DNA of 64,000 nucleotides from a virus: UHGV virus genome UHGV-0242533; one strand, given 5' to 3'. Under the pieces are notes generated by a model. It had not been told where the DNA came from and did no database searches. It saw nothing but the letters and a program-made list of their open reading frames with translations. A program made the position numbers and the translations under genes. This document shows, one piece after another, positions 33,987-49,831 of the stretch (positions are counted from its first letter, which is position 1; the number at the start of each line of letters is the position of its first letter).

Positions 33987-34166
33987 TGAAACTTTTTGAT
34001 GAAAAACACAAAAAGCAAATGGAAGACAACTCTAAGAAGTTGGAATCCAATCTTCGTAAACGTGTAGCCCAAGGCTCGGATGGTTCTCTGTTCGGAAATA
34101 TCGGATACTCTTTTGCCAAGAATCTTTTACATAGTATGGAAACCAGAAAAGTGATAAAGAAATAAA
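33987..34166 (+). CDS. Small hypothetical protein (59 aa; below cutoff)
   Basis: ATG with upstream purine-rich region; own translation. Confidence 0.3.
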
Positions 34167-34224
34167 ACAGTTTTCTTTATCTACAACTCATGAACAAATT
34201 ATTTAACATAGAAAGGTATTTAAA

Positions 34225-34644
34225 ATGTCAGAAGTAATTTACGTAGCAACTTATGGTTCTCTTCGTCGTGGTCAAGCTAACTATTTAGTTAATGATCGAG
34301 CTGGTGCTAAGTCTATTGGCGAGGGTTGGACTGAAGATAACTTCGATCTGTTCCGTTACGGTGGTTCCTACTTCCCGAGCATCTCTCTCGCACACAGCAA
34401 TAGCAATAAGCCTGTTCGTGTAGAAGTGTTTGCTACTGACAAAGCAGGTCTGGAAGGTCCATATGACCGACTGGAAGGTTACAACAAACGTAGCCCTGAA
34501 GACAGCTTCTATCAGCGTACTCAGATTGCTGTTAAGATGGACTCAGGTGAAACTGTTATCGCTTGGATTTATCACATTGACGAAGAACAAGATGTTCTGG
34601 TCGAATCTGGCGACTGGTCAGAGTATCTGAAAAGTGAATCTTGA
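34225..34644 (+). CDS. Gamma-glutamyl cyclotransferase-like (AIG2/GGCT fold) protein
   Basis: N-terminal YVATYGSLRRG motif and size of about 140 aa. Confidence 0.55.
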   Translation: MSEVIYVATYGSLRRGQANYLVNDRAGAKSIGEGWTEDNFDLFRYGGSYFPSISLAHSNSNKPVRVEVFATDKAGLEGPYDRLEGYNKRSPEDSFYQRTQIAVKMDSGETVIAWIYHIDEEQDVLVESGDWSEYLKSES

Positions 34645-34837
34645 GAAAAGACAGGCTCTTCGGAGACTTGAAGCCAAGTATTTAATGCTACGGTGCAAAA
34701 TCAACCGACATGAACGTTTCGTTGAAGCTGCACAATCTAAAAACTTTGAATCATCAGTGGAGATGTTCAAGACCCAACTTTCTTTTTATAGGAAAGAACA
34801 GGAACAAGTGTGGGATGAAATTCGTTCGTTCTACTAA
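34634..34837 (+). CDS. Hypothetical protein (67 aa)
   Basis: ORF track. Confidence 0.4.
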   Translation: MNLEKRQALRRLEAKYLMLRCKINRHERFVEAAQSKNFESSVEMFKTQLSFYRKEQEQVWDEIRSFY

Positions 34838-34863
34838 GCTCAAGGATTCCAAGGAGGAAGAGC

Positions 34864-36354
34864 ATGTCAAAGATCATTTTGGGAGACACAGGTTGTAAGG
34901 AATGTATCTCTCATGGTCGTGATAAAACCCACAACCACATGATTCTCTTCCGTAACGAAGAGACAGGTGAGGAGTGGGGGAGTTGTAACCGTTGTGGGAA
35001 TTACGAAGTGTTCGAAAAGGGCACTACACCTACTCCAAACGAGAAGAAAGAGCTATCCCCTGAAGAGTTAAGAGAAGTCTTAGACGATTGCTTAGAGCTT
35101 CCTCAGGGTGAACTTACTCGACGTTTAATCCCTAAAGCCGTATCAGAGCGTTTTGAGTGTCGAATTGGTCTAAGTCAGACTGATGGTCAGACTCCAGACA
35201 GCTACTTCTTTCCTCGTGAACGTGATGGAAACATTGTCGGTTATGAGGTTAAGCTGCTTGACAGTAAGAAGTTCTATTACGTTGGCAGTGTGAAAGAAGC
35301 AGATTTATTTGGTATGGCACAGGCTCAGCGTGGAGATGTGTACAACAAGAAGCTGTTCATTTTTGAAGACCCGCTATCCTGTATGTCAGGTTTCCATGTC
35401 CTTACAGCTTTTACAAATGCAACAAACATTAAACCAGCATGTGTTTCTTTACCGTTCGGTGCAGGTTCAATCTCTTCTGTGTTGTCTCGTAATCGAGACT
35501 TCGTAAATGGTTTTGAGGAGGTTGTGCTCTGCATGGACAATGACGATGCAGGTGAGATAGCTTTAACAAAAGGTCGTTCTTTATTCCCTCATGTCAAGTT
35601 TGCTCGTATTCCTAAAGGAACCTTCCCATACAACGGTGTGGAGAAAGAGATTAAGGATGCGAATGACATGCTTCTGTCTGGTCGTGGTCAGGAGTTATTC
35701 AACATTCTCAAGTATTCAGCAAAGCGAGAATCTCCTGCTGGCGCTGTAACAATCTTTGATTGCCTTGATGATGCTCTGAAGAAAGCGGAGTGGGGTATTC
35801 CATATCCGTGGAAGACTCTGAATGAGATGACCTTTGGTATTCGATGGGGAGAGGTGGTAGCAATCGGTGGTGGTGTAGGTAGTGGTAAGACACTAATTGC
35901 TCACGAGCTGGTTGCTCATCTGTGCTTAGAGCATGGTTTTAATGGGGGTGGCTTCTTCTTGGAAGAGAAGGTAGGCATGTCTGTTAAGAACATCGCTGGT
36001 AAGTCAGCATCAATTCCTTTCCACCGACCTGATGTTGAATATGATGAGGAGGATTTGCGTAATGAAGCACTTCGTTATGCAGACAAATTCTTCTTGTATG
36101 ACAACTTCGGACAGAATGAATGGGAAGACATTAAACAGTGTATCCGTTTCTGGGTAGTTGAAAACCAGTGTAAGTTCATCATCCTTGATAACATTACCGC
36201 TCTGGTATCTCATTTAACACCTTCAGAGATTAACACTGAAATCAGTAAGATTGCTTCAGAGCTTGCTGGTATGTGTAAAGAGTTAGACTTTACCGCTTTC
36301 GTTCTATCTCACCTTAATGCTCCGGCAGGTGGTGCTCCTCATGAAGAGGGTAAG
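34864..36354 (+). CDS. T7 gp4-like primase-helicase, exon 1
   Basis: Zn-ribbon CKEC...CNRC, Toprim-like VVLCMDNDDAGE, Walker A GGGVGSGKT; ends at SHLNAPAGGAPHEEGK then stop, matching the T7 gp4 H3 region. Confidence 0.75.
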
Positions 36355-37147
36355 TAACAAGCCCTCTATAAATTCTGTGAACTCAGGGGAACTCTAGAAC
36401 AGACAATCCTGAGCTAAGCCTAGTAATAACCCTCCTATAAGGAGGTAATATGAAACAGTATCTTGGAAAATATACGGTTCATAAAGATGGACGAATAATC
36501 AGTCACTATAACGGGAAGCCTTTAACCATCTCTCTTTACAAACCAAATAAACAGGGTAAGAAGATTGTTTATCCTAGAGTTAGGCTCTGTATTGACGGGA
36601 AAGGTAAATGGTTTGCACTACACAGGATTATAGCTGAATGCTATATCCCAAATCCAGAAAATCTTCCACATATAAACCATAAAGATGGAAACAGATTGAA
36701 TAACTCTGTTGAAAATCTTGAATGGTGCAGTCATCTACAGAATATACGGCATGCCCAAGAACACAACCTCAACCCTAAAGGAGAGAGGCAAGGTATTGCA
36801 GTTGCAACTGAAGAGATTGTAAGGAGAATTAGAAGTTTAAGAAGGGGTGGTATGTCTTATAAAGATATCGCTGAGCTTGTTAAACTTAAGAGAAGAACAG
36901 TCGAAGCTATTGGTTCTTATCAAAACTGGAAACACATAGAGTGAGTGGTTATTACTAGGAAAGTGCAACGACTAGGGTGGGCGTAAGCCCGAAGTACAGC
37001 CAAGCGGTGTCATTAACATTGACTTAAATGGAAGCGCAGAACCTTCAAATTGAAGTGAAGATATAGTCTGGTCTACATGGGGACATGTAGCAGTTCAGAG
37101 ATAGAACCTGAACGGGGTGTGATTAGCGATCACATCTGAACACAACG
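36352..37147 (+). mobile_element. Putative group I intron carrying an HNH endonuclease ORF (boundaries approximate, +/- 3 nt)
   Basis: Helicase frame interrupted by a stop; the downstream in-frame segment continues the gp4 homology; U at the 5' junction and G at the 3' end fit group I splice-site rules. Confidence 0.55.
36450..36944 (+). CDS. HNH homing endonuclease (164 aa), intron-encoded
   Basis: HINHKDGNRLNNSVENLEWCSHLQN motif; strong SD taaggaggt. Confidence 0.75.
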   Translation: MKQYLGKYTVHKDGRIISHYNGKPLTISLYKPNKQGKKIVYPRVRLCIDGKGKWFALHRIIAECYIPNPENLPHINHKDGNRLNNSVENLEWCSHLQNIRHAQEHNLNPKGERQGIAVATEEIVRRIRSLRRGGMSYKDIAELVKLKRRTVEAIGSYQNWKHIE

Positions 37148-37450
37148 GGACAGGTACGTGAAGTACAGTTCACTGGCTCTCGTTCTCTTATGCGTTGGTG
37201 TCAGTGTATCATTGGCTTTGAGCGTGACAAGCAAGCTGACGGCTTAGCTAAGAACCTCTCAGTCATTCGATTACTGAAAGAACGTAACTACGGTCAGACA
37301 GGTGTTTGTTATACTAAGTATATCAGTGAAACCGGTAGACTTGTAGAAAGGGAAGACTTTGAAGTTGATGAAGATAATCCATTCGTTTTAACTAACGGAG
37401 AGGATGCAGCTTCTCTCGTCAACCAAGCAGATGGAGCTTCACCGTGGTAA
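37148..37450 (+). CDS. Primase-helicase exon 2 (C-terminal helicase segment and acidic tail)
   Basis: In-frame translation from about 37148: [29 protein letters not shown]...[15 protein letters not shown]...YISETGRL..., colinear with the T7 gp4 C-terminus. Confidence 0.6.
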
Positions 37451-38001
37451 AGAAAAAGAAGAAAGTGTTTGCATTCGATATCGAGAGTAATGCACTGTAC
37501 GATGACATAACTAAAGTATGGTGTATTTATATCTTTGATGTTGAAACTGGTGAAAGGTGGGGCTATCGGCCTCACCAAATTGAAGATGGGATTCATAAAC
37601 TTACAGAAGCAGATGTGCTCGTGGGTCACAATATTATTGACTTCGACCTTTGTGCTCTGAAGAAAATGTATCCCAATCTAATTGAATATCGTTTTAACGT
37701 CTTTGACACTTTATGTCTTAGTCGATATCTTAAACCTGACCGTATTGGTGACAGTCCTGAGTATCCGAAAGGCGACCCTAGACATGGCCCAAGAGGTCAT
37801 GGCTTGAAGCAATGGGGTGAGTTCTTAGGGGAACTTAAAGGTGATTACGGTGAGCAAGAGGAAGCATGGGATGCTTTCACTGAAGATATGTTTACTTATT
37901 GTGAACAGGACGTTAACTTAACTGTTAAGGTTTATCTTTTCTTGTGTGAACTCACGGGATTTGACCCTTACGACCCACCTTCATTATATTGGAAAATGTA
38001 A
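37444..38001 (+). CDS. DnaQ-like 3'-5' exonuclease domain protein, separate from the polymerase gene
   Basis: Exo motifs FAFDIES, HNIIDFD, YCEQDV. Confidence 0.6.
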
Positions 38002-38002
38002 A

Positions 38003-39373
38003 ATGATTGTTATCCCGATTAACCGAATTGAAGATAAGGTTGCTCAACAACCTGATATTGCTGTTGGTCGTCACTTCATTGAACAGTTGATTAACAACAA
38101 CTTGGTTCCAGACGGTATCTGTCCCATCATTACTGGTGGGGCTGTTCGAGATGCTGTGCTTAATAACACAGCTCCACATGACATTGATATCTTTATTGTC
38201 AGAGGACAAACACCAAGAACTCAAAACACATTCATCCCAACTGATCGTTGGCAAGCTCTTGGAAGAGAGATTGAAAGTAATGTGAAGGAATGGCTAGAGT
38301 CACAAGATATCGAATATGCATCCCTTCTTGCTGAAGCTACAAACGAATCCTATGCTGGGGGTTCTCAATTAACATTCACTGATATTATTGAGTTTCAGTG
38401 GAATGGAACCCGCATTCAATTCATGTTTAATTATCCTACTTCTATTGAAGAGGTATTGGATAATTTTCCTATGATGTGCCGTGGTGCGATAACTCTTGAC
38501 AGCTTATTCATGACCCCTCATGGATATTTAGCTATGACCGCTCCTTGCCCTGTGGTTGTTTCTAGTCGTGAAATCAGATACGTTCACAAGAAGTGGCCTA
38601 ATTCACAGGTATTAAGATTCTCCGCTCCATCTGTTGCATATCAATATATGGCACAAACTCGATACCTTCCTACACCTCAACCAGTTAGTCATCTGGTCAA
38701 CGAACGAGGTCAGGTTGCTCCTGTTGAGGATACAACAAGTGCTCAATATTGTGTTAACCGAGACATGAGTCGATTCTTTGGAATCCCTTACGAAGAAATT
38801 CAGTTAATGTCAAGTGTTCATGGCTCTGGTCAGATTCGTGCGTATTGGTCTGAAGGGTTGACGAATTTAACAACTAATACAGGAGGGGATCTCCTTGGTC
38901 GAGAAGAGGAACCTAACCGACACAATGCAATTGAAGGGGTGTTTGTAGCCCCTGCAATGCGTCGAGCACAAGAGTCACGAAGAGTAAGCCCTACTCGTAG
39001 AACATCTTTTGAAGAGGCTCTTGGTGTTACTAGCGATTCATTTGAGCAGTGGTTGTCTAGACGTTCTAATGGTCTGTCAAATGGTTTGACTGCTAGCCGT
39101 CACCAGTTCTCTGGTCAGGGTTTTGCTGTTGGTGATATTGACCAAGCTGCTCGTGTTATATGGACTGATGAAGCATCTGCTCAAGATGTGGTTAATAATC
39201 TCGCCGATCTTGATATTCCTTCTCATGGCGAGCTAGCTGAGACTGTCAGTCGTAGTCTCGCTGATCGCTTTGTTGCTGATAACCCTGAAGTATTAGAGCC
39301 TCAAACCAATACAATTAGTGTTGCTGACGTAGTTGGTGATGGATTCTCTTTTTACGCACGAACAAATAACTAA
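38003..39373 (+). CDS. Nucleotidyltransferase of the CCA-adding / poly(A) polymerase family (456 aa); internal ATG chosen
   Basis: N-terminal GGAVRDAVL...HDIDIFIV matches the GGxVRD...DxD head-domain signature. Confidence 0.5.
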   Translation: MIVIPINRIEDKVAQQPDIAVGRHFIEQLINNNLVPDGICPIITGGAVRDAVLNNTAPHDIDIFIVRGQTPRTQNTFIPTDRWQALGREIESNVKEWLESQDIEYASLLAEATNESYAGGSQLTFTDIIEFQWNGTRIQFMFNYPTSIEEVLDNFPMMCRGAITLDSLFMTPHGYLAMTAPCPVVVSSREIRYVHKKWPNSQVLRFSAPSVAYQYMAQTRYLPTPQPVSHLVNERGQVAPVEDTTSAQYCVNRDMSRFFGIPYEEIQLMSSVHGSGQIRAYWSEGLTNLTTNTGGDLLGREEEPNRHNAIEGVFVAPAMRRAQESRRVSPTRRTSFEEALGVTSDSFEQWLSRRSNGLSNGLTASRHQFSGQGFAVGDIDQAARVIWTDEASAQDVVNNLADLDIPSHGELAETVSRSLADRFVADNPEVLEPQTNTISVADVVGDGFSFYARTNN

Positions 39374-39382
39374 GGAATAAGA

Positions 39383-39916
39383 ATGAGTTTACTAGGAAGT
39401 GTTGAACTGCATGATGTAATTGACAATGGCTATCTGGATGCGGAGCATAAGTATGTTAACGCTGCTAGTGTGGATATCCGTATTGGTGATACTATCCTTG
39501 TTGAAGAACAGGCTGATGGCATCGTTGATATTGATGCGAAAGAGAATCTTCAGTGGAAGGAAGTAAAGATTCCTGAAGAGGGTTTGGTTATCACTCCGGG
39601 TCAGTTCTTCTTGGCTCACTCTATGGAAGAGTTTAATCTTCCAGATAACATCTCAAGTCTGTTTGTCCTGCGTTCGTCTATGGCTCGTTGTGGTTTGAAC
39701 CACCTTCACGCCGGTTGGGCAGATGCAGGATTTAATAGCAGTAAGCTGACATTTGAATTCCATAACGTAACCAAGCACCACAGTTTACGAGTTCGTGCTG
39801 GTATGCGTGTAGGTCAGATGGTAATGTTTGAGCACTCTCATGCAGGGGAACACTCCTATGCAGTGAAGGGTCGTTATAATAACTCTGAAGGTGTAGTTGC
39901 ATCTAAAGGTGTGTAA
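39383..39916 (+). CDS. dCTP deaminase / dUTPase superfamily protein
   Basis: ASVDIRIG and GWADAGFN motifs; 177 aa. Confidence 0.65.
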   Translation: MSLLGSVELHDVIDNGYLDAEHKYVNAASVDIRIGDTILVEEQADGIVDIDAKENLQWKEVKIPEEGLVITPGQFFLAHSMEEFNLPDNISSLFVLRSSMARCGLNHLHAGWADAGFNSSKLTFEFHNVTKHHSLRVRAGMRVGQMVMFEHSHAGEHSYAVKGRYNNSEGVVASKGV

Positions 39917-40114
39917 ATGAAAAAATGGATTGTTCGTGTACATGATAACACGACTGGAGAGTTAGTAGCTGTAGATTTTGTTAAGACTCGAGAGCACGCA
40001 CGTAGAGTCAAAAATCAATACAAGTCTACTTTTAGACTTAACAAGGTTACATTAGGAAGGGCTATTGTGAATAGCGAAGGTGCTTTTATTGCCAACAGTA
40101 AGGTTTATTATTAA
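39917..40114 (+). CDS. Small basic protein, paralog 1 of 3
   Basis: 65 aa; shares TREHAR/TRQQAR/TRKEAR and C-terminal KV-YY with the next two ORFs. Confidence 0.5.
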   Translation: MKKWIVRVHDNTTGELVAVDFVKTREHARRVKNQYKSTFRLNKVTLGRAIVNSEGAFIANSKVYY

Positions 40115-40323
40115 TGAGACCGATCACTATGAGACAATTTTGGTTAGCAAAGATCAAGTGGGCATCAGGTGGCATGACTATGACTGCACTACCCACTCGC
40201 CAACAAGCTCGAGATTTTAAAAAGACTATGCTTACTGGTGACGTGGTCAATAGTATCAGTATCCATAAGGCCAAGGAGTATTCTTCTGGTCGTATTTATA
40301 TCAGCGGAAAGGTGCATTACTAA
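40114..40323 (+). CDS. Small basic protein, paralog 2 of 3
   Basis: 69 aa; tandem paralog. Confidence 0.5.
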   Translation: MRPITMRQFWLAKIKWASGGMTMTALPTRQQARDFKKTMLTGDVVNSISIHKAKEYSSGRIYISGKVHY

Positions 40324-40532
40324 TGAAAAAGATGTGGGCTATTCGTGTTGTCTGGGAACAGAAACAACACTTAGGTAAAGATAATATCAAACTGTTTAAC
40401 ACTCGCAAAGAGGCTCGTGTCGCTAAAAAGAATATGAAAGCTCTAATAGGAACTGTTAAAAGTGCTGACATTCATCGCTGGTATGAAGACCCTAGCTCGG
40501 GTTCTTTTATGTCTAAAGTAATTTATTACTGA
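40323..40532 (+). CDS. Small basic protein, paralog 3 of 3
   Basis: 69 aa; tandem paralog. Confidence 0.5.
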   Translation: MKKMWAIRVVWEQKQHLGKDNIKLFNTRKEARVAKKNMKALIGTVKSADIHRWYEDPSSGSFMSKVIYY

Positions 40533-40558
40533 TTGGTAGTAGATATGGTAACTCTCAA

Positions 40559-40567
40559 ATGTATATA
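40559..40567 (+). promoter_or_regulatory. Near-match to TAATGTATA element (AAATGTATA)
   Basis: About 40 nt upstream of the 40605 start. Confidence 0.3.
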
Positions 40568-40604
40568 GAGTACAATAAGAATTTGTATTTTACAGGAGAG
40601 AGTT

Positions 40605-40934
40605 ATGTTAGATTTGAGTAAAGTGGCCCCGCCCACTGAAGAGATTACAAAATCCAAGGTGATGCAACAGTTTTATCATCGTGATATGCTTGGTCGCTTT
40701 ATCAAGAATCGTGATGTTGTTGCTTGGTCTATTGGTAATCAGGGATATCTGTTGAAGGTTCTTCAGGTTACAGGTTCAACTGCTAAGCGAGTTAAGGTGT
40801 ATGACCCTGAAATGGGGCGTTCTAAGTCAGTAGACCCACAGAACTGCATCGTAATTACCCAGCAGGTAATGGATAATATTGCACGTAACGTTGCTAACTC
40901 AGTTGAACTTGATGGAGAAAACCCAAATGCATAA
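40605..40934 (+). CDS. Hypothetical protein (109 aa)
   Basis: ORF track; RBS ggagagag. Confidence 0.5.
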   Translation: MLDLSKVAPPTEEITKSKVMQQFYHRDMLGRFIKNRDVVAWSIGNQGYLLKVLQVTGSTAKRVKVYDPEMGRSKSVDPQNCIVITQQVMDNIARNVANSVELDGENPNA

Positions 40935-41490
40935 GAATGTTTTTGATTTACCTGATATTGGTCGTTCAGAATATAACATGTTAGACCGGTCTGAGCTTTC
41001 AATCTCTCGCCTTGAAACAATGCAGGGTATGATTAGTGGAAACAGCCTAGAACACATCCTGAGCTGCTTGCAAGCTAACATGGAACTCTTGCATATCAAA
41101 GCTAAAAACTACCACTGGAACGTCTCTGGTGCAGGATTTCAGGGTGTTCATGGTATGTTTGACGAGCTGGAAGATTACGCACGACAGGTAGGAGATCGTA
41201 TTGCTGAACGTATGCGTTACCACTGTGTTAAAGTGGACGCTACAGCAGCTAACTACCTCTCTCATGCTTGGTTCTCAGAGGGTAACGCTGATCTAGACAT
41301 GGACGGTATGCTCTCTGATATGTGCATGACCTTGATGTGTATTATTGAGAAGATGGATGAGTTTGATGGCGATTTAGCCACTTACCCTGTCGATCAGAGT
41401 ATGCTTCAAGAAATTAATGAAGGTCTTGGCAAGTATTGCTACTTCGTCAAGAGCAACATGTCCCATTCAAGTGGTGACGTGTCTTACTAA
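40927..41490 (+). CDS. Dps / ferritin-like protein (187 aa; internal ATG chosen)
   Basis: LQANMELLHIKAKNYHWNVSGAGFQGVHGMFDELEDYARQVGDRIAERM parallels the Dps helix A/B signature (YHWNV.G..F..LH..F.E.Y...D.IAER). Confidence 0.55.
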   Translation: MHKNVFDLPDIGRSEYNMLDRSELSISRLETMQGMISGNSLEHILSCLQANMELLHIKAKNYHWNVSGAGFQGVHGMFDELEDYARQVGDRIAERMRYHCVKVDATAANYLSHAWFSEGNADLDMDGMLSDMCMTLMCIIEKMDEFDGDLATYPVDQSMLQEINEGLGKYCYFVKSNMSHSSGDVSY

Positions 41491-41550
41491 AACCTCCGCC
41501 CTGTCTCCTAACCCGAGGTGGGGCGAACTTATTTATAAGGATATAGATAT

Positions 41551-41730
41551 ATGTTATCAGCAATCGTATGGGGTATTTGGGCTATCTTTATCGGTGGTGG
41601 TATTTATTGGGCTTCTGGTAAGCTTATTGAAGAAACTCCTGATAAGAAAGGTGAGATTCAAACAGCATCAACCATCATGGTTATCGTAGCTGTTGTTATC
41701 CCGTTCCTGCTTCACCTCCTGACTGCATAA
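41551..41730 (+). CDS. Small membrane protein (59 aa; below cutoff)
   Basis: Two hydrophobic helices; ATG with RBS region. Confidence 0.35.
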   Translation: MLSAIVWGIWAIFIGGGIYWASGKLIEETPDKKGEIQTASTIMVIVAVVIPFLLHLLTA

Positions 41731-41738
41731 GGATTTAC

Positions 41739-42014
41739 ATGTCTAAAGTAATTAAGTTTTATAGTGATCAGTGTGCTCCATGTAAAGCAATGGCTCCTAC
41801 CTTTGAGAAGGTTGTTAAGGAGTTTGATGTAGAAGTGGAAGAGATTAACATCCTTGAAGGTGATGGTCGTGAACAAGCTGTTAAGTATGGTGTACGAAGC
41901 ATCCCTGCTTTCGTTGTGCCTGACCGTAACAGTGGTGCACACTACAGCCTCTCTGGTATGCAGACTGAAGCAAACCTGAAAGCATTTTTGGACACAGCCC
42001 TGAGCAATAAGTAA
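41739..42014 (+). CDS. Thioredoxin/glutaredoxin-fold protein (CxxC)
   Basis: CAPC active-site-like motif near N-terminus, SIPAFV cis-Pro-loop-like motif; 91 aa. Confidence 0.55.
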   Translation: MSKVIKFYSDQCAPCKAMAPTFEKVVKEFDVEVEEINILEGDGREQAVKYGVRSIPAFVVPDRNSGAHYSLSGMQTEANLKAFLDTALSNK

Positions 42015-42029
42015 TAAGGATATTCACGG

Positions 42030-42686
42030 ATGAATGAACAACTACAAGCAACATTAATCGAAGCTATGGGAAGCGATCGTAGCGTAGTAAACGCAGCTCG
42101 AGTTTCCTTTGGCGTAACCCGTGAAGGTGATTTAAATGAACGTGATGAACGTCTCATCAACTTCCTCGCAAGAGAGAAGCATGTTACCCCATTCCGACAT
42201 CCGCAAGTCAGTTTCCGATGCAAAGCACCTATCGCAATTGCGAGACAGTTGGGCAAGCATCAGGTTGGATTCTCGTGGAACGAAATGTCCCGGCGGTATA
42301 AAGATGGAGAAGTTGAAGTCTTCATCCCTAAAGAGATTTTTGCGAGACCTTCGGACCTCCATGCAGGTTCAGGGACACAGCTCATCGACGGAGAACGAGC
42401 TGAAGCATTAATGTTGATTAACGATGCATATGAAGCTTCTCTAGCAGCATATGACAAGTTGATTGAGTTTATTGCACCAGAGCAAGCTCGATTTGTTCTT
42501 CCTCAGGGAATGATTACTGAGTGGGTGTGGACTGGTTCTTTGTATGGATGGTTTGAGTTGTGCCGTCAACGACTCTCCTCTCATGCTCAGTATGAAGTTC
42601 GAGTGTTTGCTAAATCCTTAGATGAAGAAATGGCTAAACTCTACCCAATCTCATGGGCAGCTCTGAAGAAAACCTTGGAGAATTAA
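42030..42686 (+). CDS. thyX: ThyX-family flavin-dependent thymidylate synthase-like protein with variant motif
   Basis: F-RHPQVSF...KHQVGFSWNEMSRRY aligns with the ThyX RHR...S.SQ.S.RY region; the canonical RHR is KHQ here. Confidence 0.6.
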   Translation: MNEQLQATLIEAMGSDRSVVNAARVSFGVTREGDLNERDERLINFLAREKHVTPFRHPQVSFRCKAPIAIARQLGKHQVGFSWNEMSRRYKDGEVEVFIPKEIFARPSDLHAGSGTQLIDGERAEALMLINDAYEASLAAYDKLIEFIAPEQARFVLPQGMITEWVWTGSLYGWFELCRQRLSSHAQYEVRVFAKSLDEEMAKLYPISWAALKKTLEN

Positions 42687-42831
42687 TATTGGAAGAAGAT
42701 GATGATGTGTTCTGCACTAAATGTGGGATGACAGTTGAGGATGCATATGACCCAAGTGTAGAAATTTGTCCATGTTGCGGAGTATGTGAATATTGCTGTT
42801 CCAACAACTCAGAGGATTAGCAGGAGAAAGA

Positions 42832-43017
42832 ATGGATAAGAAAGTGTGCAGCTTCTGTAAGAAAGAGAAGCCTATCGCCAACTTTAAGTTTAATCCTGTA
42901 ACCGGTTTGACTCATGTCATGTGTCACTCTTGCAGGATATACCTTGAAACAAAGCACACCATTAACAGGTTGCACTATTATCACCCAACAACATTCAAAT
43001 TTAAGGTTGTGAAATGA
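42832..43017 (+). CDS. Small zinc-ribbon protein (internal ATG with AGGAG SD)
   Basis: CSFC...CHSC. Confidence 0.4.
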   Translation: MDKKVCSFCKKEKPIANFKFNPVTGLTHVMCHSCRIYLETKHTINRLHYYHPTTFKFKVVK

Positions 43018-43343
43018 TTGACAGTAATACATTTAGGACTTCAAATGGAAGTGAGATAAGTCCCGCTGAAGTAATTAATCGGCACAGAAGGCAATTGATC
43101 ATCCATTCCTATTTGTATTACTGGTTGGATGACCCTATCTGGTCTGACGATAAATGGCAACAAGTTGCTAATGACCTAGTGGAGCTGCAAGCCCTGTATC
43201 CAGAGCCTACTGGAGTCTTTGACAATGAATTCAAAGATTGGGATGGTTCTACAGGGATGCACTTCCCACACAATGAGGCTGTTGCTTGTATGGCGACAGC
43301 TGTTTACAGGATTCATAAAGATATGAACCATGAAGTGCTCTAG
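43014..43343 (+). CDS. Hypothetical protein (109 aa)
   Basis: ORF track. Confidence 0.45.
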   Translation: MIDSNTFRTSNGSEISPAEVINRHRRQLIIHSYLYYWLDDPIWSDDKWQQVANDLVELQALYPEPTGVFDNEFKDWDGSTGMHFPHNEAVACMATAVYRIHKDMNHEVL

Positions 43344-43515
43344 ATGTGAAGGAACAAACCTTCATTTAAGTAACAAGGTTATCAGAGAGCTTGCCAAAGG
43401 CTCTCCAACCAAAGGGAAGAACAAACGATTTACTAACGTCAGGGTTTATACAGCAATCTGTAAAGACTGCTTAACCACTGAGTGTCATTACGAAGAAATT
43501 GGAGAGCGTAAATGA
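43330..43515 (+). CDS. Small zinc-ribbon protein (61 aa)
   Basis: CSRC...CKDC. Confidence 0.4.
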   Translation: MKCSRCEGTNLHLSNKVIRELAKGSPTKGKNKRFTNVRVYTAICKDCLTTECHYEEIGERK

Positions 43516-44249
43516 GTCGTCGTCAATCACGGAAAGAATCACGGAAAGACCTTCGTCGGGAAGCACTTGTTACTCGTAAGGGTAAGCGAGAGTATGAAGA
43601 GGTGGTTTTAGCAAAGCCTGTAGTCCCTCAGAACCAGTTTCAGTCTGAGCTACTCAATGCTATTAAGACTAAACAAGTTGTGTTCACAGACGCTCCTGCG
43701 GGCTGTGGTAAGACCTTTGTAATCACTTCCACGGTTATCGATGCACTGAAGAGTGGTAAGATTCAGAAGATCATCCTGAGTCGACCTTCAGTTGGCATGG
43801 GTAACTCTCTTGGGTTACTTCCGGGAGGAATGCGTGAGAAGTTTGAACCATACCTGATGCCTATCATTGATGTTATTACTCAGCGATACGGTAAGGGATT
43901 CTATGAATGCCAAATCGGAAATGGTAACATTGAATTTGTACCTCTGGAATATCTCCGTGGTCGCTCTTTCAATGATGCCATTGTTATCGTAGATGAGTTC
44001 CAGAACACAACTAAGGATGAAGCCTTCTCCATCATGACTCGATTGGGAGAAACCTCTCAATTGTTCTGTATGGGTGATACAAACCAGCATGATATGCGTG
44101 GTCGCGAGAGTGGTCTAACTTGGGCTACTAACTTTATTGATGAACACGATCTGTATGAGTTTGCTGAGATTGTAGATGGTGAATCAGATGATATTGTTCG
44201 TTCTGGTTTCTGTAAGGCGATTGTTAAAGCAATGGAAAAGAAAGCTTAA
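43512..44249 (+). CDS. phoH: PhoH-like ATPase
   Basis: Walker A APAGCGKT, then ILSRP..., Walker B IVIVDEFQN. Confidence 0.75.
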   Translation: MSRRQSRKESRKDLRREALVTRKGKREYEEVVLAKPVVPQNQFQSELLNAIKTKQVVFTDAPAGCGKTFVITSTVIDALKSGKIQKIILSRPSVGMGNSLGLLPGGMREKFEPYLMPIIDVITQRYGKGFYECQIGNGNIEFVPLEYLRGRSFNDAIVIVDEFQNTTKDEAFSIMTRLGETSQLFCMGDTNQHDMRGRESGLTWATNFIDEHDLYEFAEIVDGESDDIVRSGFCKAIVKAMEKKA

Positions 44250-44260
44250 ACAGTAACTTA

Positions 44261-44269
44261 TAATGTATA
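44261..44269 (+). promoter_or_regulatory. TAATGTATA promoter-like element
   Basis: Exact 9-mer about 37 nt upstream of the 44306 start. Confidence 0.4.
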
Positions 44270-44305
44270 CTCCTTAGTGTACACTGATATATTAAGGAGT
44301 TCTAA

Positions 44306-44623
44306 ATGGCAGACCATGTAGGAAAGAGAGATTATGCACAAGAAAGACGTACCGCAATTGCCCGTGGTGAAACAGGCGTTGGGAGCAAGAGCGGAGATGC
44401 TCAGCGCCACCGTGCACGTCGCATCGTTGAAAAGCGCGATGGAAAAGCTGCTGTCAGAGGTAAAGACGTTGGACACAAACGAGCTGTCAAGTCTGGAGGC
44501 TCTAATGCGTCAAGCAACTTACGTGTTGAATCAGTCAGCTCAAACCGTTCAAACGGCGGCAAAAGTGGTGATCGAGCTGGAAAAGCAGCTGGAGCACGCA
44601 AAGGGGCTTTAAGCTCATCGTAA
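44306..44623 (+). CDS. Basic Arg/Gly/Lys-rich protein (105 aa)
   Basis: Strong SD aaggag 7 nt upstream; chosen over the overlapping ORF 44334..44612. Confidence 0.45.
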   Translation: MADHVGKRDYAQERRTAIARGETGVGSKSGDAQRHRARRIVEKRDGKAAVRGKDVGHKRAVKSGGSNASSNLRVESVSSNRSNGGKSGDRAGKAAGARKGALSSS

Positions 44624-44627
44624 TATG

Positions 44628-44660
44628 AGGCTACCCAAATGGGTGGCCTTTTCTTTTATA
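44628..44660 (+). terminator. Intrinsic terminator
   Basis: aggctaccc-aaat-gggtggcct followed by TTTTCTTTT. Confidence 0.65.
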
Positions 44661-44691
44661 TAAACCAAAATAAACTTCTTAGGTAATAAAT

Positions 44692-44946
44692 ATGTCTATT
44701 GTAAAAATCGTAAATATTTTTGATGTAACCAGAGATGGCAAGATTGTTAAGTGGACTTTCACTAACCACCACAACAAATCAAACAAGATCATCGAACGGA
44801 TGATTGAGATTAACCCAAAAACAGCTCGCACTAACGTACTCCTTCGCGGAGCTGATGGAAAATTTATCTCTTATAAGAATAAGAACGTAGAAAAATCTTT
44901 CCGTGTTGCAGTAGAAAATCTCATCCCATTCCCTAAAGGAGTTTAA
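44692..44946 (+). CDS. Small protein, tandem paralog A (84 aa)
   Basis: Shares KTARTNV(L/M)LR...GKFISY...PFP(K/R)G with the next ORF. Confidence 0.5.
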   Translation: MSIVKIVNIFDVTRDGKIVKWTFTNHHNKSNKIIERMIEINPKTARTNVLLRGADGKFISYKNKNVEKSFRVAVENLIPFPKGV

Positions 44947-44947
44947 T

Positions 44948-45232
44948 ATGAATAAGTTAGCTATGGTTCAAATTCGGGACACATACACTAACCGCCCGGA
45001 GCAGAAACCGCGTACTTGGTCTTATCTGTTGGCTGAAAGTAAGACTATTGACAAATACGCTGTAGGGATTGATACTATTCCAACTAGTGTCACATTACTC
45101 CCTCACAAAACAGCCAGAACTAATGTGATGTTACGTGATAGCAAAGGTAAGTTTATCTCTTATCGTGATTCAAGAATCAATAATGAAATTAAATCTGCTG
45201 TGGAATTTTTGATGCCATTCCCAAGAGGTTGA
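44948..45232 (+). CDS. Small protein, tandem paralog B (94 aa)
   Basis: As above. Confidence 0.5.
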   Translation: MNKLAMVQIRDTYTNRPEQKPRTWSYLLAESKTIDKYAVGIDTIPTSVTLLPHKTARTNVMLRDSKGKFISYRDSRINNEIKSAVEFLMPFPRG

Positions 45233-45235
45233 GTT

Positions 45236-45649
45236 ATGCCATTACCAGCTAGACACCAAAACCGTTTCCTAGTTCTAAAGTGGGATGATATTGAAATGAA
45301 TCTCACTGAGCACGAACTAGATTTGTTCCATGAATTATTATCAGAGATTCGCTCTGGTATTCCTGAACGTCAGTATGTTGTTATCAGTGATAAACACCCT
45401 CAAGAGTTTGAAGAAGCTTGGGGCATGAAGCTGGCCTACATTCAGAGAGCTATTAGAGAAAGAGAAGAAGTTGCTAATCAGAGGGTTGTGGCCCATCTGG
45501 TACGAGAGCAGCCTCGTGGGGTTAGGTCTTCTTATTCTCCATCTACTTGGGCACAAACAAATGCAGCAATGAGATCATATGCTGTTGATTCCACATCATT
45601 GGATGTAGTAGAAGATAACCAAGCATTTACAGATTTACTTTACCAATAA
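45236..45649 (+). CDS. Hypothetical protein (137 aa)
   Basis: ORF track. Confidence 0.5.
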   Translation: MPLPARHQNRFLVLKWDDIEMNLTEHELDLFHELLSEIRSGIPERQYVVISDKHPQEFEEAWGMKLAYIQRAIREREEVANQRVVAHLVREQPRGVRSSYSPSTWAQTNAAMRSYAVDSTSLDVVEDNQAFTDLLYQ

Positions 45650-45665
45650 TTTAAAGGAGTATAAA

Positions 45666-47510
45666 GTGAGCAACCCGGACGCTCTTCCATTTTTGACAGA
45701 GATGACTGTCGCTGATATAATCTCTAAGCAAGCAAAGCACGGAGTGAGTTTCAACCGAAGAAATGCTCGGTGGTATGTTCACCTCCTTAAAGAGATTATT
45801 GTTAATATTGACAGAGAGTTGATTCCTCTCTTACCTAAGATGAGATTAGATGGCTCTACTTACATGAAGCCGTTTAAGAAGTCTGGAGCTTTACAGAAGT
45901 GGCCTCAAGCCTATTGTGATAGGGTTGGGCTGAAGAGAGAAGATATTGGTGGAGCTTTCACCTGTGTCGAATACGTAGACTTTGACCCATCGAAAGATGC
46001 ACGAGTTAAAGAAGCTCTTATGGATGAGGGCTTTCTTCCTCCAGAGTTTAACGTATCTAAGAAGCCTTGGAATACTTTCGAAATTAAGAAAGATATGAGA
46101 AAGTATGGAACATACCAAGCATGGTATACTGCTTGGATGCGAGGTAATGCTAAGCAAAAACAGACAGCCGAGATGGTTGACGCTGATATTAAGAAGTTCT
46201 TAGAAAAGCATTTCAGGTTTAAGACTAAGAATTACATGAAGGCTTACGTATTTGGTTTGGGGTTGAACCCTAATCGCCGTAATCCTGTAACGTTTGATGA
46301 GATTAAGAAAGCACTAGCCACATCAAACAAGTGGCCTACAGCTCCTACAAACCTCGAGGAGACTCTTGAAGAAGGGTTAGGGGGTGAGCTAGGGAGTGTC
46401 GGAAGTTTGCTTAAGAAACGCGTTGTAGCGGCTCACAGGCTAGGTCTTATCAGTGGACTCATAGCAAAGGAGCGCGAAGATGGTAAACTTTCGGCAGAAG
46501 CTAACAGCTGCGCTACGCCGACTTTTCGATTCAAACATCGTATCGTGGTTAATATTCCCTCCCGTGGTCTGTTTGGTCACGAGTGTCGCAGTTTGTTTGA
46601 GTCTGACTATAACTCAGACAGTGATCACTCTCGTCCTTTCGTTATTACTAACGTTGTTCCTGATGGTTGTTATATACGAAAGGGTACTAACGTAATTTAC
46701 GAGAAAGGTAAGCCGGGGAAGAAAGACAAACCTGTAGGTGCTTACAAATATTACATACCCGCTGGTAAAGAAGTATTCTTAGGGTATGATGGTTCTGGAC
46801 TTGAACTTCGTATGCTCGCTCACTACCTCATCAAAGAGTGTAGAGATATGCTTGCTGAAGCAATCGAAGAGAACAATCCAGCTAAGAAAGCTCTGGCAGA
46901 ACGCGGTCTAGCTTCTGCTATTATGTATCGTGATATTCTCCTTGAAGGTGATATCCACTCCCACAACCAGAAACTTGCTGGTCTTCCTACTCGTGACAAT
47001 GCTAAGACATTTATCTATGCATTCAACTACGGTGCTGGTGATGCTAAGCTTGGTTCAATTGTAGGTGGTGGGGCTGACGAAGGTTCAGTGATGCGAGCAC
47101 GTTTCTTAGCAGAGAACCCATGTATTGCAATCCTCATTGATCGCATGACAGAGAAAGCTGCTCAAGGATACTTGATTGGTGTTGATGGTCGTAAGATTAC
47201 AATGAGACGAGATGCCACTGGTAAAGTTATGGTTCATAAAGCCCTTAATACACTCCTGCAATGTGCTGGTGCTGTTGTTATGAAATATGCTATGATGTTC
47301 CTTAACAAGTGGATTGAGAAGGATGGGGTTCGTTGTGCTAAGGTAATTGATATGCACGATGAAGGCCAGTTCTCAGTGAATCGTAATGATGTACAGAAAC
47401 TCAAAGAGCACACTGAGCTTTGTGTTAAGAAGGCTGGTGAGTACTTGAACATGGAATGTCCTCTGGCTTCTGATTGTCAGATTGGATTAAATTGGATGCA
47501 TACGCACTAA
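45666..47510 (+). CDS. Family A (T7-like) DNA polymerase, polymerase domain only (614 aa)
   Basis: Motif A GYDGSGLELRMLAHY, motif B-like RDNAKTFIYAFNYGAG, motif C VIDMHDEGQF; no exonuclease motifs in this ORF. Confidence 0.8.
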   Translation: MSNPDALPFLTEMTVADIISKQAKHGVSFNRRNARWYVHLLKEIIVNIDRELIPLLPKMRLDGSTYMKPFKKSGALQKWPQAYCDRVGLKREDIGGAFTCVEYVDFDPSKDARVKEALMDEGFLPPEFNVSKKPWNTFEIKKDMRKYGTYQAWYTAWMRGNAKQKQTAEMVDADIKKFLEKHFRFKTKNYMKAYVFGLGLNPNRRNPVTFDEIKKALATSNKWPTAPTNLEETLEEGLGGELGSVGSLLKKRVVAAHRLGLISGLIAKEREDGKLSAEANSCATPTFRFKHRIVVNIPSRGLFGHECRSLFESDYNSDSDHSRPFVITNVVPDGCYIRKGTNVIYEKGKPGKKDKPVGAYKYYIPAGKEVFLGYDGSGLELRMLAHYLIKECRDMLAEAIEENNPAKKALAERGLASAIMYRDILLEGDIHSHNQKLAGLPTRDNAKTFIYAFNYGAGDAKLGSIVGGGADEGSVMRARFLAENPCIAILIDRMTEKAAQGYLIGVDGRKITMRRDATGKVMVHKALNTLLQCAGAVVMKYAMMFLNKWIEKDGVRCAKVIDMHDEGQFSVNRNDVQKLKEHTELCVKKAGEYLNMECPLASDCQIGLNWMHTH

Positions 47511-47887
47511 ATTCAGAACTGAAAGACCGGAACACAAATGAACTAGTCTTATTGAGTAGTTCATCATAAGGAGATTGAAGTGGAAGAGATGCCATCGGAT
47601 TGGTGTTATCGTCAAAGCGCCATCTGTAGTGAACAAGGACGTGCTGATGAAGCACAATACTATTTAGAATTAGCTGAATTATGGAAAGAGAGAGAGGAAA
47701 AGAATGACTGCAACTGAACTAAAAGAAACCCTATCAACTGAAGAAGGTAAAGCTTTCTTCTTATCTCAAGTACACTCTATGGGTAAAGATGCCCTTCGCC
47801 AAGCAGTCGTTGAGTTAACTGGTGTAGTGATTGATTTGAGTATTGAAAATGAGACACTTGAAGCTAAAGTGAATAATTAAATAAGAA

Positions 47888-47912
47888 GCTGCCTTAGGGC
47901 GGCTTTTCTTGT
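47888..47912 (+). terminator. Intrinsic terminator (moderate)
   Basis: gctgcc-ttag-ggcggc followed by TTTTCTT. Confidence 0.45.
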
Positions 47913-47926
47913 CTAAAGGATTTGAC

Positions 47927-48319
47927 ATGAATATTGGTTTAGATTATGATGACACTTACACAGCAGATAGACGTCTGTGGAGAGATGTGATAGGCTTGAT
48001 GAAAGAGTACGGACATGATGTAAGATTCGTGACTTTCCGTTTCTCAGAGCCTAATGGTTATGATAATGTAGATATCCTCTACGATGCAGAAACCCTGCAA
48101 ATTCCTGTCATCTTTTGTAATGGTGTGCAGAAGGATGAGGTATGTCGACAGTTAGGTTTCTTTGTAGATATCTGGATTGACGACTTCCCTGTTGGAATCC
48201 CCAAAAAGGACCACCTAGATGGGATGCTGAAGGGAGTAAGACTTAACGACCTTAGGGCAGCACCTCCTGTAGAAATACCCGCCCCTGTGTACTCTGAAGA
48301 GCCGTTGGTGATACGTTAA
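47927..48319 (+). CDS. HAD-superfamily phosphatase-like protein (candidate nucleotidase)
   Basis: N-terminal IGLDYDDT (DxDxT motif I) and DIWIDD; RBS aaagga 6 nt before ATG. Confidence 0.45.
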   Translation: MNIGLDYDDTYTADRRLWRDVIGLMKEYGHDVRFVTFRFSEPNGYDNVDILYDAETLQIPVIFCNGVQKDEVCRQLGFFVDIWIDDFPVGIPKKDHLDGMLKGVRLNDLRAAPPVEIPAPVYSEEPLVIR

Positions 48320-48468
48320 TAAGGAAGAAGAATGATTTGGGTTCACACATATAAGATTGGAAAGAAAGAGATGACCGTTGTACATCACTCCGAAGAAAGC
48401 GCTAATGCTTCCAAGGTAATCCTTAAGGGAGAAGTTAAAGTATACGCTGAAGTAAAAGGAACAGAAAA

Positions 48469-48657
48469 ATGATCAATAAAATTAAAGATAATGAATACAT
48501 ACTTAATTCTTCTATTTTAGATAATGGAAATATTATTGATTTCATTACTCTTTCAGAGCTAAAAGAGTTAGTAGATTCTTTATACTCAGAGGAACAAAAT
48601 CGCTTGTTACAAGAGTCTCTCAGTGGGGACTATGTTTGTGATGGTTGTTTAATTTAA
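48469..48657 (+). CDS. Hypothetical protein (62 aa)
   Basis: ORF track. Confidence 0.4.
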   Translation: MINKIKDNEYILNSSILDNGNIIDFITLSELKELVDSLYSEEQNRLLQESLSGDYVCDGCLI

Positions 48658-48945
48658 CTTTCTTTATATTAGGTAATAAGTAATGAGTATTTATAAGAAG
48701 TTTCTTATCTTTGTTTCAGTCTGTTTAGTGTTAGATATAATAATTATTTATTCTTTTAAATAGAGAATCAAAGTCCCTAGGAGTCCCTACAACCTAAATC
48801 AAGGATTCCTTAATTCTCTATTTTTATCTCGCAGGTGGCTCCTGCCCTTCCGGTAGTCTCTCAATTTCTTACAAACTTATGAGAGGTTGTCGTCTGCGCC
48901 TTATCGTCGTCAGTCCCGTGCAATAACTTTATCAGCTATACAATA

Positions 48946-48954
48946 TATACATTA
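48946..48954 (-). promoter_or_regulatory. TAATGTATA element on minus strand within AT-rich intergenic region
   Basis: Plus strand reads tatacatta. Confidence 0.3.
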
Positions 48955-49017
48955 CTAGTGTGTTATATCTACTACCAAAGATACTTATATTATATAGTAC
49001 TCTTATCGGTATAAGCA

Positions 49018-49084: not shown

Positions 49085-49831
49085 ATGAGCATGATTCCAA
49101 CTATCGCAACTTCTTCCCGTAAGTCCAACTACGATGTAATCCCTGATGGTGAGTACGAAGCACGTATTGTTCGTGTAGTAGGTTTGGGTGTTCACAATCG
49201 TGACCCTTGGATTGACCCGAAGACCAAAGCAGTAACTCCTAAGAATCCAGCTTTCCGTATGGATTTAGCTTTCGAGCTGATTGGTGTTGATGCTACTGGT
49301 AAAGATTCCGATGGTAAGGCATTAGAACCACGTCCGGCTTGCCAGTTCAAGAGCTATGATGTAAACCCACGAGCTAAGAACTCTGGTATTCTTGATCTTT
49401 GCAAGATGATTGACCCAAGTATTCAAGCACTGAAAGGTGATCTGTCTTGGTTCAAGGATGTTCTGTTAGGACAGCCTGTTAACATTCTGGTTAACTCTTA
49501 CACTAACAAAGCTGGTGAAGTTAAAAACTCCATCAAAACCATTTCTCCAATCCCAACCAAATATCGTGCAGCAGTTGGTGAAGCTCGTAGTCCTCTGGTA
49601 TTCTTCGAACCGTATGCTGAAACCGATGAGAACGTAGCATCCTATCAACTGATGTTCCCGTTCCAGCGCAACCTGCTTACCCAAGCTAATGACGCTAAGA
49701 ACATGCCTCTGGCTGGTCGTGAAATTACTCGTGCTTCTGAGACAGAACAGAAAGAAGCTACTCCTTCAATCCCTACGATTGATAAAGAGCCTGCTTCTAC
49801 TTATGAAGACGACAACGATTCGCCTTTTTGA
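49085..49831 (+). CDS. Putative single-stranded DNA-binding protein (acidic C-terminal tail)
   Basis: C-terminus ...STYEDDNDSPF resembles the SSB acidic tail (DDDIPF type); call rests on the tail motif only. Confidence 0.4.
   Translation: MSMIPTIATSSRKSNYDVIPDGEYEARIVRVVGLGVHNRDPWIDPKTKAVTPKNPAFRMDLAFELIGVDATGKDSDGKALEPRPACQFKSYDVNPRAKNSGILDLCKMIDPSIQALKGDLSWFKDVLLGQPVNILVNSYTNKAGEVKNSIKTISPIPTKYRAAVGEARSPLVFFEPYAETDENVASYQLMFPFQRNLLTQANDAKNMPLAGREITRASETEQKEATPSIPTIDKEPASTYEDDNDSPF

Follow-up and report, generated by a model that had tools for sequence, protein, structure and literature searches.

The 64,000-nucleotide (nt) stretch analyzed here (the window) comes from the virus genome UHGV-0242533, and it contains two open reading frames (ORFs), 37444..38001 and 45666..47510, that are the halves of one family A DNA polymerase of the T7 gp5 type. 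The smaller ORF encodes the proofreading exonuclease and the larger one the thumb, palm, and fingers. The gap between the two genes is 7,664 nt, in agreement with the roughly 7.6 kb given in a preliminary description made from this sequence. Both halves are intact and conserved and keep all catalytic residues. We consider it probable, at about 80%, that the T7 gp5-type polymerase of Kuravirus was split long ago at the linker between exonuclease domain and thumb, and that the halves reassemble as a two-subunit proofreading enzyme. The split family A polymerase is real, but it has already been published and annotated for this phage group; new here are the insertions that track with the split, the count of about 19 genes in the interval, and a putative intron in the primase/helicase gene. 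Feature coordinates are collected in Table 1.

By its nucleotide sequence the source phage is a Kuravirus (Gordonclarkvirinae), i.e., a phiEco32/SU10-like E. coli podophage. The 11-kb region around the split pair has 94-95% nucleotide identity with phages Bas91, SU10, and SGF2 in our nucleotide comparison, and about 60 other Kuravirus phages match over at least 80% of the 11-kb query.

Table 1. Coordinates of the split polymerase and associated features in the window (aa, amino acids).
Feature	Position	Strand	Remarks
Primase/helicase exon 1 (T7 gp4-like)	34864..36351	+	96.4% identical to SU10 nt 1-1488; ends ...GAGGGT
Putative group I intron, 796 nt, with HNH homing-endonuclease ORF 36450-36944	36352..37147	+	in-frame insertion relative to SU10
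Primase/helicase exon 2	37148..37450	+	98.7% identical to SU10 nt 1489-1791; TAA at 37448-37450
3'-5' proofreading exonuclease subunit of split family A polymerase	37444..38001	+	GTG start, 185 aa
Interval of ~19 genes	38003..45649	+	ORF list, Pfam, PHROGs
N-terminally truncated thioredoxin	41739..42014	+	91 aa, CAPC active site, cis-Pro kept; PF00085, 2.1e-13
Polymerase subunit (thumb, palm, fingers)	45666..47510	+	GTG start, 614 aa

The smaller ORF had been described as carrying three exonuclease motifs, and the Pfam search places it above threshold: it matches DNA_pol_A_exo1 (PF01612) at 3.3e-8, its 34 bits exceeding the cut-off of 23.6, and no catalytic residue is missing. A DEDDy exonuclease is defined here by an RNase H-like fold with the motifs Exo I (DxE), Exo II (Nx2-3[F/Y]D), and Exo III (Yx3D). 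In the window protein Exo I corresponds to D12/E14 (FDIES), Exo II to H62-N63...D68 (HNIIDFD), and Exo III to Y152...D156 (YCEQD), and D12, E14, N63, D68, Y152, and D156 are invariant among 48 stand-alone exonuclease homologues. The predicted product is a Pol A-type DEDDy 3'-5' exonuclease. Its sole PDB sequence match is T7 gp5 residues 3-178 (3e-11), aligned with exonuclease aa 10-160; it also matches phrog_403 and phrog_38876, both named "DNA polymerase exonuclease subunit". The AlphaFold2 model has a predicted local distance difference test (pLDDT) value of 93.5, and in a structure search with this model the first 27 matches are T7 gp5 chains (E 4e-11 to 8e-9), the next match falling at about 1e-5. 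The small ORF is not an unrelated DnaQ-type nuclease, a case that had been raised against the split, since T7 gp5 is the top match by both sequence and fold. We found 2,630 relatives of this ORF among 1.84 billion representative proteins. Among the best 150 of them, 80 are longer than 540 aa and match at their N-terminus, and all of these long relatives (80/80) match the window polymerase too, further down the chain; another 38 of the best 150 stand alone and do not exceed 260 aa.

The larger ORF is a family A DNA polymerase, the defining traits being a fold of thumb, palm, and fingers and the motifs A (DxxxLExR), B (RxxxKxxxY), and C (HDE). Motif A is formed by D375 and L379-E380-L381-R382, motif B by R443, K447, and Y451, and motif C by H564-D565-E566, all of them invariant in 55 homologues. 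Pfam DNA_pol_A (PF00476) covers only aa 361-611 (3.5e-23), and aa 1-360 have no exonuclease-type Pfam match even at E ≤ 10; the earlier statement that this ORF has the polymerase motifs without those of an exonuclease is thus borne out by analysis with hidden Markov models. T7 gp5 is again the best PDB sequence match (3e-33), with Klenow next at 3.7e-6, and polymerase aa 63-134, 269-337, and 421-614 align with gp5 295-362, 410-481, and 496-704, respectively. The AlphaFold2 model (pLDDT 90.9) has T7 gp5 as its best PDB fold match as well (E 1e-26).

When the exonuclease and polymerase sequences are concatenated, they align over the full length of gp5 and of natural fused homologues, and the break falls at about gp5 190-205, the linker between exonuclease domain and thumb in the alignment. 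The same picture is obtained from PHROG 17 (DNA polymerase), in which the exonuclease ORF occupies positions 667-826 and the polymerase ORF positions 836-1233, adjacent to each other and non-overlapping. Two checks proposed in the preliminary description were run: structure prediction of both products gave confident models with T7 gp5 as the best structural match for each, and comparison with related phage genomes found the split and the gene order kept in SU10, Bas91, DL54, and LAh_8. We conclude that the two ORFs are halves of one T7 gp5-type family A polymerase. Neither hidden exonuclease motifs in the larger ORF nor an unrelated origin of the smaller one fits what was found, because the gp5 collinearity, the PHROG 17 positions, the models, and the fused relatives all speak for this conclusion.

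The window enzyme shares with T7 gp5 the domain order, the identity of the catalytic residues, a primase/helicase gene upstream, the T7-type tyrosine in motif B (FIYAF versus FIYGF), and an insertion at the thioredoxin-binding position. It differs in that gp5 is a single 704-aa chain, whereas the window phage has chains of 185 aa and 614 aa from genes 7.66 kb apart; moreover, the window polymerase has three extra insertions (aa 134-232, 312-366, and 390-420), and its loop at the thioredoxin-binding position falls short of that of gp5 by about 26 residues. Separate polymerase and exonuclease chains acting as one enzyme are well known from E. coli Pol III, which combines the DnaE alpha polymerase with the DnaQ epsilon DEDD exonuclease. 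Unlike the pair in the window, however, that polymerase belongs to family C, and its exonuclease is of the DnaQ type rather than family A-derived.

The order primase/helicase, exonuclease, cargo genes, polymerase is found in SU10, Bas91, DL54, and LAh_8. In the Pseudomonas Bruynoghevirus DL54 the insert is 1.9 kb and the exonuclease gene begins before the helicase gene ends, and in the Aeromonas Lahexavirus LAh_8 9.6 kb lie between the exonuclease and polymerase genes. Since LUZ24-like Pseudomonas phages and the Aeromonas Lahexavirus share the gene order, the split is old, with the same arrangement in three lineages (Kuravirus, Bruynoghevirus, and Lahexavirus). The best 108 polymerase homologues are all 437-618 aa long and without an exonuclease domain; they include the LUZ24-like Pseudomonas "DNA polymerase part II" at 39% identity, and the first fused relatives of the polymerase show up at about 43% identity. 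The simplest history would be that a T7-like gene 5, located immediately behind gene 4, broke just once and long ago at its domain linker, after which each lineage would have gained a block of cargo genes of different size. SU10, phiEco32, YF01, and other Kuravirus phages have the same split in the same gene order; they differ from the window phage in having 20-23 interval genes rather than 19, and in lacking the group I intron predicted in its primase/helicase gene. The LUZ24-like phages (Bruynoghevirus, with part I and part II) have a full-length polymerase homologue of 39-42% identity with the same breakpoint, an exonuclease gene that overlaps the primase/helicase end, and the same thumb and palm insertions. 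In contrast to the window phage, their gap is filled by small genes and spans no more than about 1.9 kb, their polymerase lacks the third (fingers) insertion, and the homologue search found no counterpart of the window thioredoxin in them.

As a discovery, the split itself carries little weight: it has been in print ever since the genomes of phiEco32 and LUZ24 were published, and it stands in GenBank and PHROGs. The Bas91 record already labels the pair "DNA polymerase exonuclease subunit" and "DNA polymerase", and PHROGs families already bear the former name. Polymerase and proofreading 3'-exonuclease were described as separate genes in all LUZ24-group phages (PMC3517423, 2012), and a passage of that paper citing Savalia et al. 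2008 gives a similar organization for phiEco32. The separation was later called common to all Kuravirus-like phages and to the relatives 7-11, Privateer, Vp_R1, and BUCT695 (PMC9965538, 2023). Our literature search found no biochemical study of a phage family A polymerase that is split, and none of the papers searched shows a T7-type polymerase working with a detached proofreading domain or a role of phage-encoded thioredoxins. Kuravirus grows on E. coli, which makes it convenient for the study of both the detached proofreading domain and phage thioredoxins.

How the two products might work together can be outlined as follows. The exonuclease half would have stayed directly behind the primase/helicase gene, and its translation is probably coupled to that gene through the overlap of its GTG start with the primase/helicase stop (7 nt, with GGAG 7 nt upstream). 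The polymerase half, placed 7.66 kb downstream behind nucleotide-metabolism and small accessory genes, would be translated from its own ribosome-binding site, and a strong one (AAAGGAG) lies 6 nt ahead of its GTG. The two proteins would then reassemble non-covalently, the exonuclease taking the place that the covalent domain has in T7 gp5, and the resulting holoenzyme may work with the T7-like primase/helicase, which carries an acidic, aromatic-ended C-terminal tail. This tail, encoded by exon 2, ends in ...ADGASPW, with a terminal Trp, and it resembles the T7 gp4 tail that contacts the polymerase gp5; this is a likeness only. A precedent for reassembly is the split family B polymerase of PhiKZ, which forms a stable 1:1 complex (PMC13648687). 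Like the window phage, this chimallivirus makes its replicative polymerase from two genes (DNAP-N and DNAP-C); it differs in polymerase family, in breakpoint, and in having a clamp-derived accessory subunit.

Several points weigh against the reassembly of the halves, and some of them favor a free-standing nuclease that forms no stable complex and acts in recombination, in host-DNA breakdown, or in transient proofreading in trans, which would leave the polymerase functionally exonuclease-free. In the papers searched, neither binding data nor other direct evidence that exonuclease and polymerase bind each other was found. The genes stand 7.66 kb apart with terminator-like hairpins on the plus strand between them (41497-41525 and 44627-44650), which means that expression of the halves need not be coordinated. 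In phage O18-011 an intron-like element lies between the helicase stop, where the exonuclease gene usually starts, and the body of that gene, so translational coupling to the helicase is dispensable. The 38 stand-alone proteins among the best 150 exonuclease homologues indicate that the domain tolerates independence. We nevertheless consider a free exonuclease improbable. Its nearest relatives by sequence and by fold are polymerase-attached proofreading domains, its ORF ends exactly at the inter-domain linker of gp5 with no extra domain, and the gene order of the split pair is kept in all three lineages examined. For co-evolution analysis, homologues of the exonuclease, polymerase, and thioredoxin were paired by contig, and about five pairs were obtained, which is too few.

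A different possibility is that the two ORFs are joined again at the level of the polypeptide or the mRNA, through a split intein, trans-splicing, or a giant intron. The paper on UFV-P2, a LUZ24-like phage, calls the halves "two exons", and group I introns seem to be active in this same region of the genome. It is, however, very hard to reconcile with the sequence: the exonuclease ORF stops and the polymerase ORF starts exactly at the gp5 linker, neither of them carrying extra sequence of intein size, both ORFs come with a start codon and a Shine-Dalgarno sequence of their own, they are separated by about 19 genes that look expressed, and an RNA family scan of 34000-49000 gave no candidate besides the primase/helicase intron. 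A split intein or trans-splicing was rejected specifically because neither end has anything added compared with gp5, the Pfam matches of polymerase aa 1-360 being only noise. We also rejected a frameshift fusion of the exonuclease with the helicase; the overlap of the two genes has no slippery site. We regard any such rejoining as extremely improbable and favor reassembly of two separately translated subunits.

Two of the polymerase insertions track with the split. The thumb insertion (68-99 residues; window aa 134-232), helical in the model, is present in 50/50 aligned split-type polymerases, and the palm insertion (21-55 residues; aa 312-366), beta-rich in the model, in 49/50. The closest fused relatives (7/7) lack both, with 7-12 residues at the thumb site and 7 at the palm site; the thioredoxin-binding-like loop occurs in both groups, split-type and fused. 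It can be tentatively proposed, although we hold it doubtful, that the clade with the detached exonuclease evolved dedicated docking modules, in which the insertions and the retained loop hold the free exonuclease and perhaps the phage thioredoxin. Such an arrangement would amount to a T7-like holoenzyme of three subunits, one of them a processivity factor that the phage itself encodes. On the other side, the correlation of insertions and split comes from a single clade and may be explained by shared ancestry alone. In any case, the insertions offer a concrete hypothesis for biochemical work.

The thioredoxin-fold gene noted earlier within the interval is real. Its predicted product is a thioredoxin by the CxxC motif, the cis-proline, and the Pfam match, and C12, P14, C15, and P56 are invariant among its phage homologues. 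From TrxA residue 25 on, it is 31% identical to E. coli TrxA; the phage protein starts at about TrxA residue 22 and misses some 21 N-terminal residues. T7 relies on E. coli thioredoxin, whereas the window thioredoxin is phage-encoded and truncated. It is conceivable that it binds the thumb loop of the polymerase as a phage-encoded processivity factor, forming a three-subunit holoenzyme. In T7 the thioredoxin-binding domain is a segment of about 70 residues inserted in the thumb, and the window polymerase retains some 50 inserted residues at this position, whose C-terminal segment GGAFTCVEYVDFDPS aligns with T7 GAPYTPVEHVVFNPS. The latter segment contains T327 and lies near E319, both of which are implicated in contacting thioredoxin. 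Conservation of the loop extends through the clade and that of the thioredoxin through the C3-morphotype phages, and the Bas91 annotation has no ribonucleotide reductase, so the usual partner of a phage thioredoxin is absent there. Thioredoxin as a processivity factor was in fact already proposed for the related phage Privateer (PMC7881722, 2021).

However, the thumb loop is kept equally in LUZ24-like polymerases and in fused relatives, and the thioredoxin homologue search gave none in Pseudomonas, Aeromonas, or Vibrio phages; with the loop present and no homologue in those phages, the loop does not track the phage thioredoxin. The loop is also 26 residues shorter than that of T7 and is predicted to be ordered by itself (pLDDT 87-91), and the phage protein is without the N-terminal residues of TrxA mentioned above. 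Its redox site, CxPC with the cis-Pro, is invariant, and its gene has thyX and further genes of nucleotide metabolism as neighbors. For cyanophage Syn5, modeling favored the host over the phage thioredoxin as the polymerase partner (bioRxiv 10.1101/2025.10.05.680603). Our literature search found no paper linking Kuravirus to trxA. On balance, binding of the phage thioredoxin to the thumb loop is unlikely, and a redox or nucleotide-supply role is more likely than one in processivity.

Between the halves, the preliminary description had counted fourteen genes; this number was too low, the ORF list giving about 19 on the plus strand, and the same interval holds 23 annotated coding sequences in SU10 and 20 in Bas91. 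The interval includes a nucleotidyltransferase, a dCTP deaminase, a Dps/ferritin-like DNA-binding protein, the thioredoxin, ThyX, a stand-alone ligase Ia domain, and PhoH. The ligase-like protein (43014-43343, 109 aa) has a single part of an NAD-dependent DNA ligase, the NAD+-binding Ia domain (PF22745, 9e-35), and nothing else, and relatives label this Ia-only protein "DNA ligase" though the catalytic domain is absent. Small paralogues stand in tandem at two places: three phrog_4939 proteins of 65-69 aa at 39917-40532, a cluster that has one more small gene in SU10, and two phrog_6814 proteins of 84 and 94 aa at 44692-45232.

Upstream of the exonuclease, the primase/helicase gene appears to be interrupted by a group I intron with a homing endonuclease, a situation rare in the genus; the SU10 gene is uninterrupted over its 1791 nt. 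The intron call is based on sequence features. The 796-nt element matches Rfam Intron_gpI with 34.6 bits (E 9.8e-6), short of the gathering score of 50. Its boundaries are canonical: the last base of exon 1 is T (U), that of the element is G, and an internal guide at 36361-36366, GCCCTC, forms a 6-bp P1 with GAGGGT at the end of exon 1. The ORF 36450-36944 matches phrog_59, HNH endonuclease (7e-43), and the core of the element resembles introns in replication genes of other phages. Among the phage records searched, a related full-length copy was found in O18-011 only, at 82% identity. There (LC553735, 2496-3330) the copy, together with 40 nt of primase/helicase exon-2 sequence, lies between the helicase stop and the exonuclease body, so that the exonuclease is cut off from the usual overlapping GTG and is annotated from an ATG equivalent to V8. 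This copy is probably not spliceable because no matching P1 target is found upstream. The Kuravirus genus paper (PMC9965538, 2023) makes no mention of introns.

Downstream of the polymerase, 49085-49831 encodes a conserved 248-aa phrog_6599 protein with an acidic tail ending in Phe (...YEDDNDSPF). This tail is reminiscent of that of T7 gp2.5. We tried it as a candidate gp2.5-like single-stranded DNA-binding protein and rejected it; the protein has no PDB or Pfam match and no similarity to the helix-destabilizing protein of the LUZ24 group.

Two further observations concern the polymerase gene. A perfect 12/12 sigma-70 consensus (TTGACA, 17 nt, TATAAT, with an upstream TG) is located at 45693-45721 on the coding strand, within the first 60 nt of the polymerase ORF. 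The polymerase gene of the window is uninterrupted, and those of KBNP1711, phage 1-6af, BUCT695, and four further homologues are broken by an extra insertion of about 0.6-0.8 kb; in these Kuravirus-like phages the predicted proteins span only about 72-74% of the polymerase.

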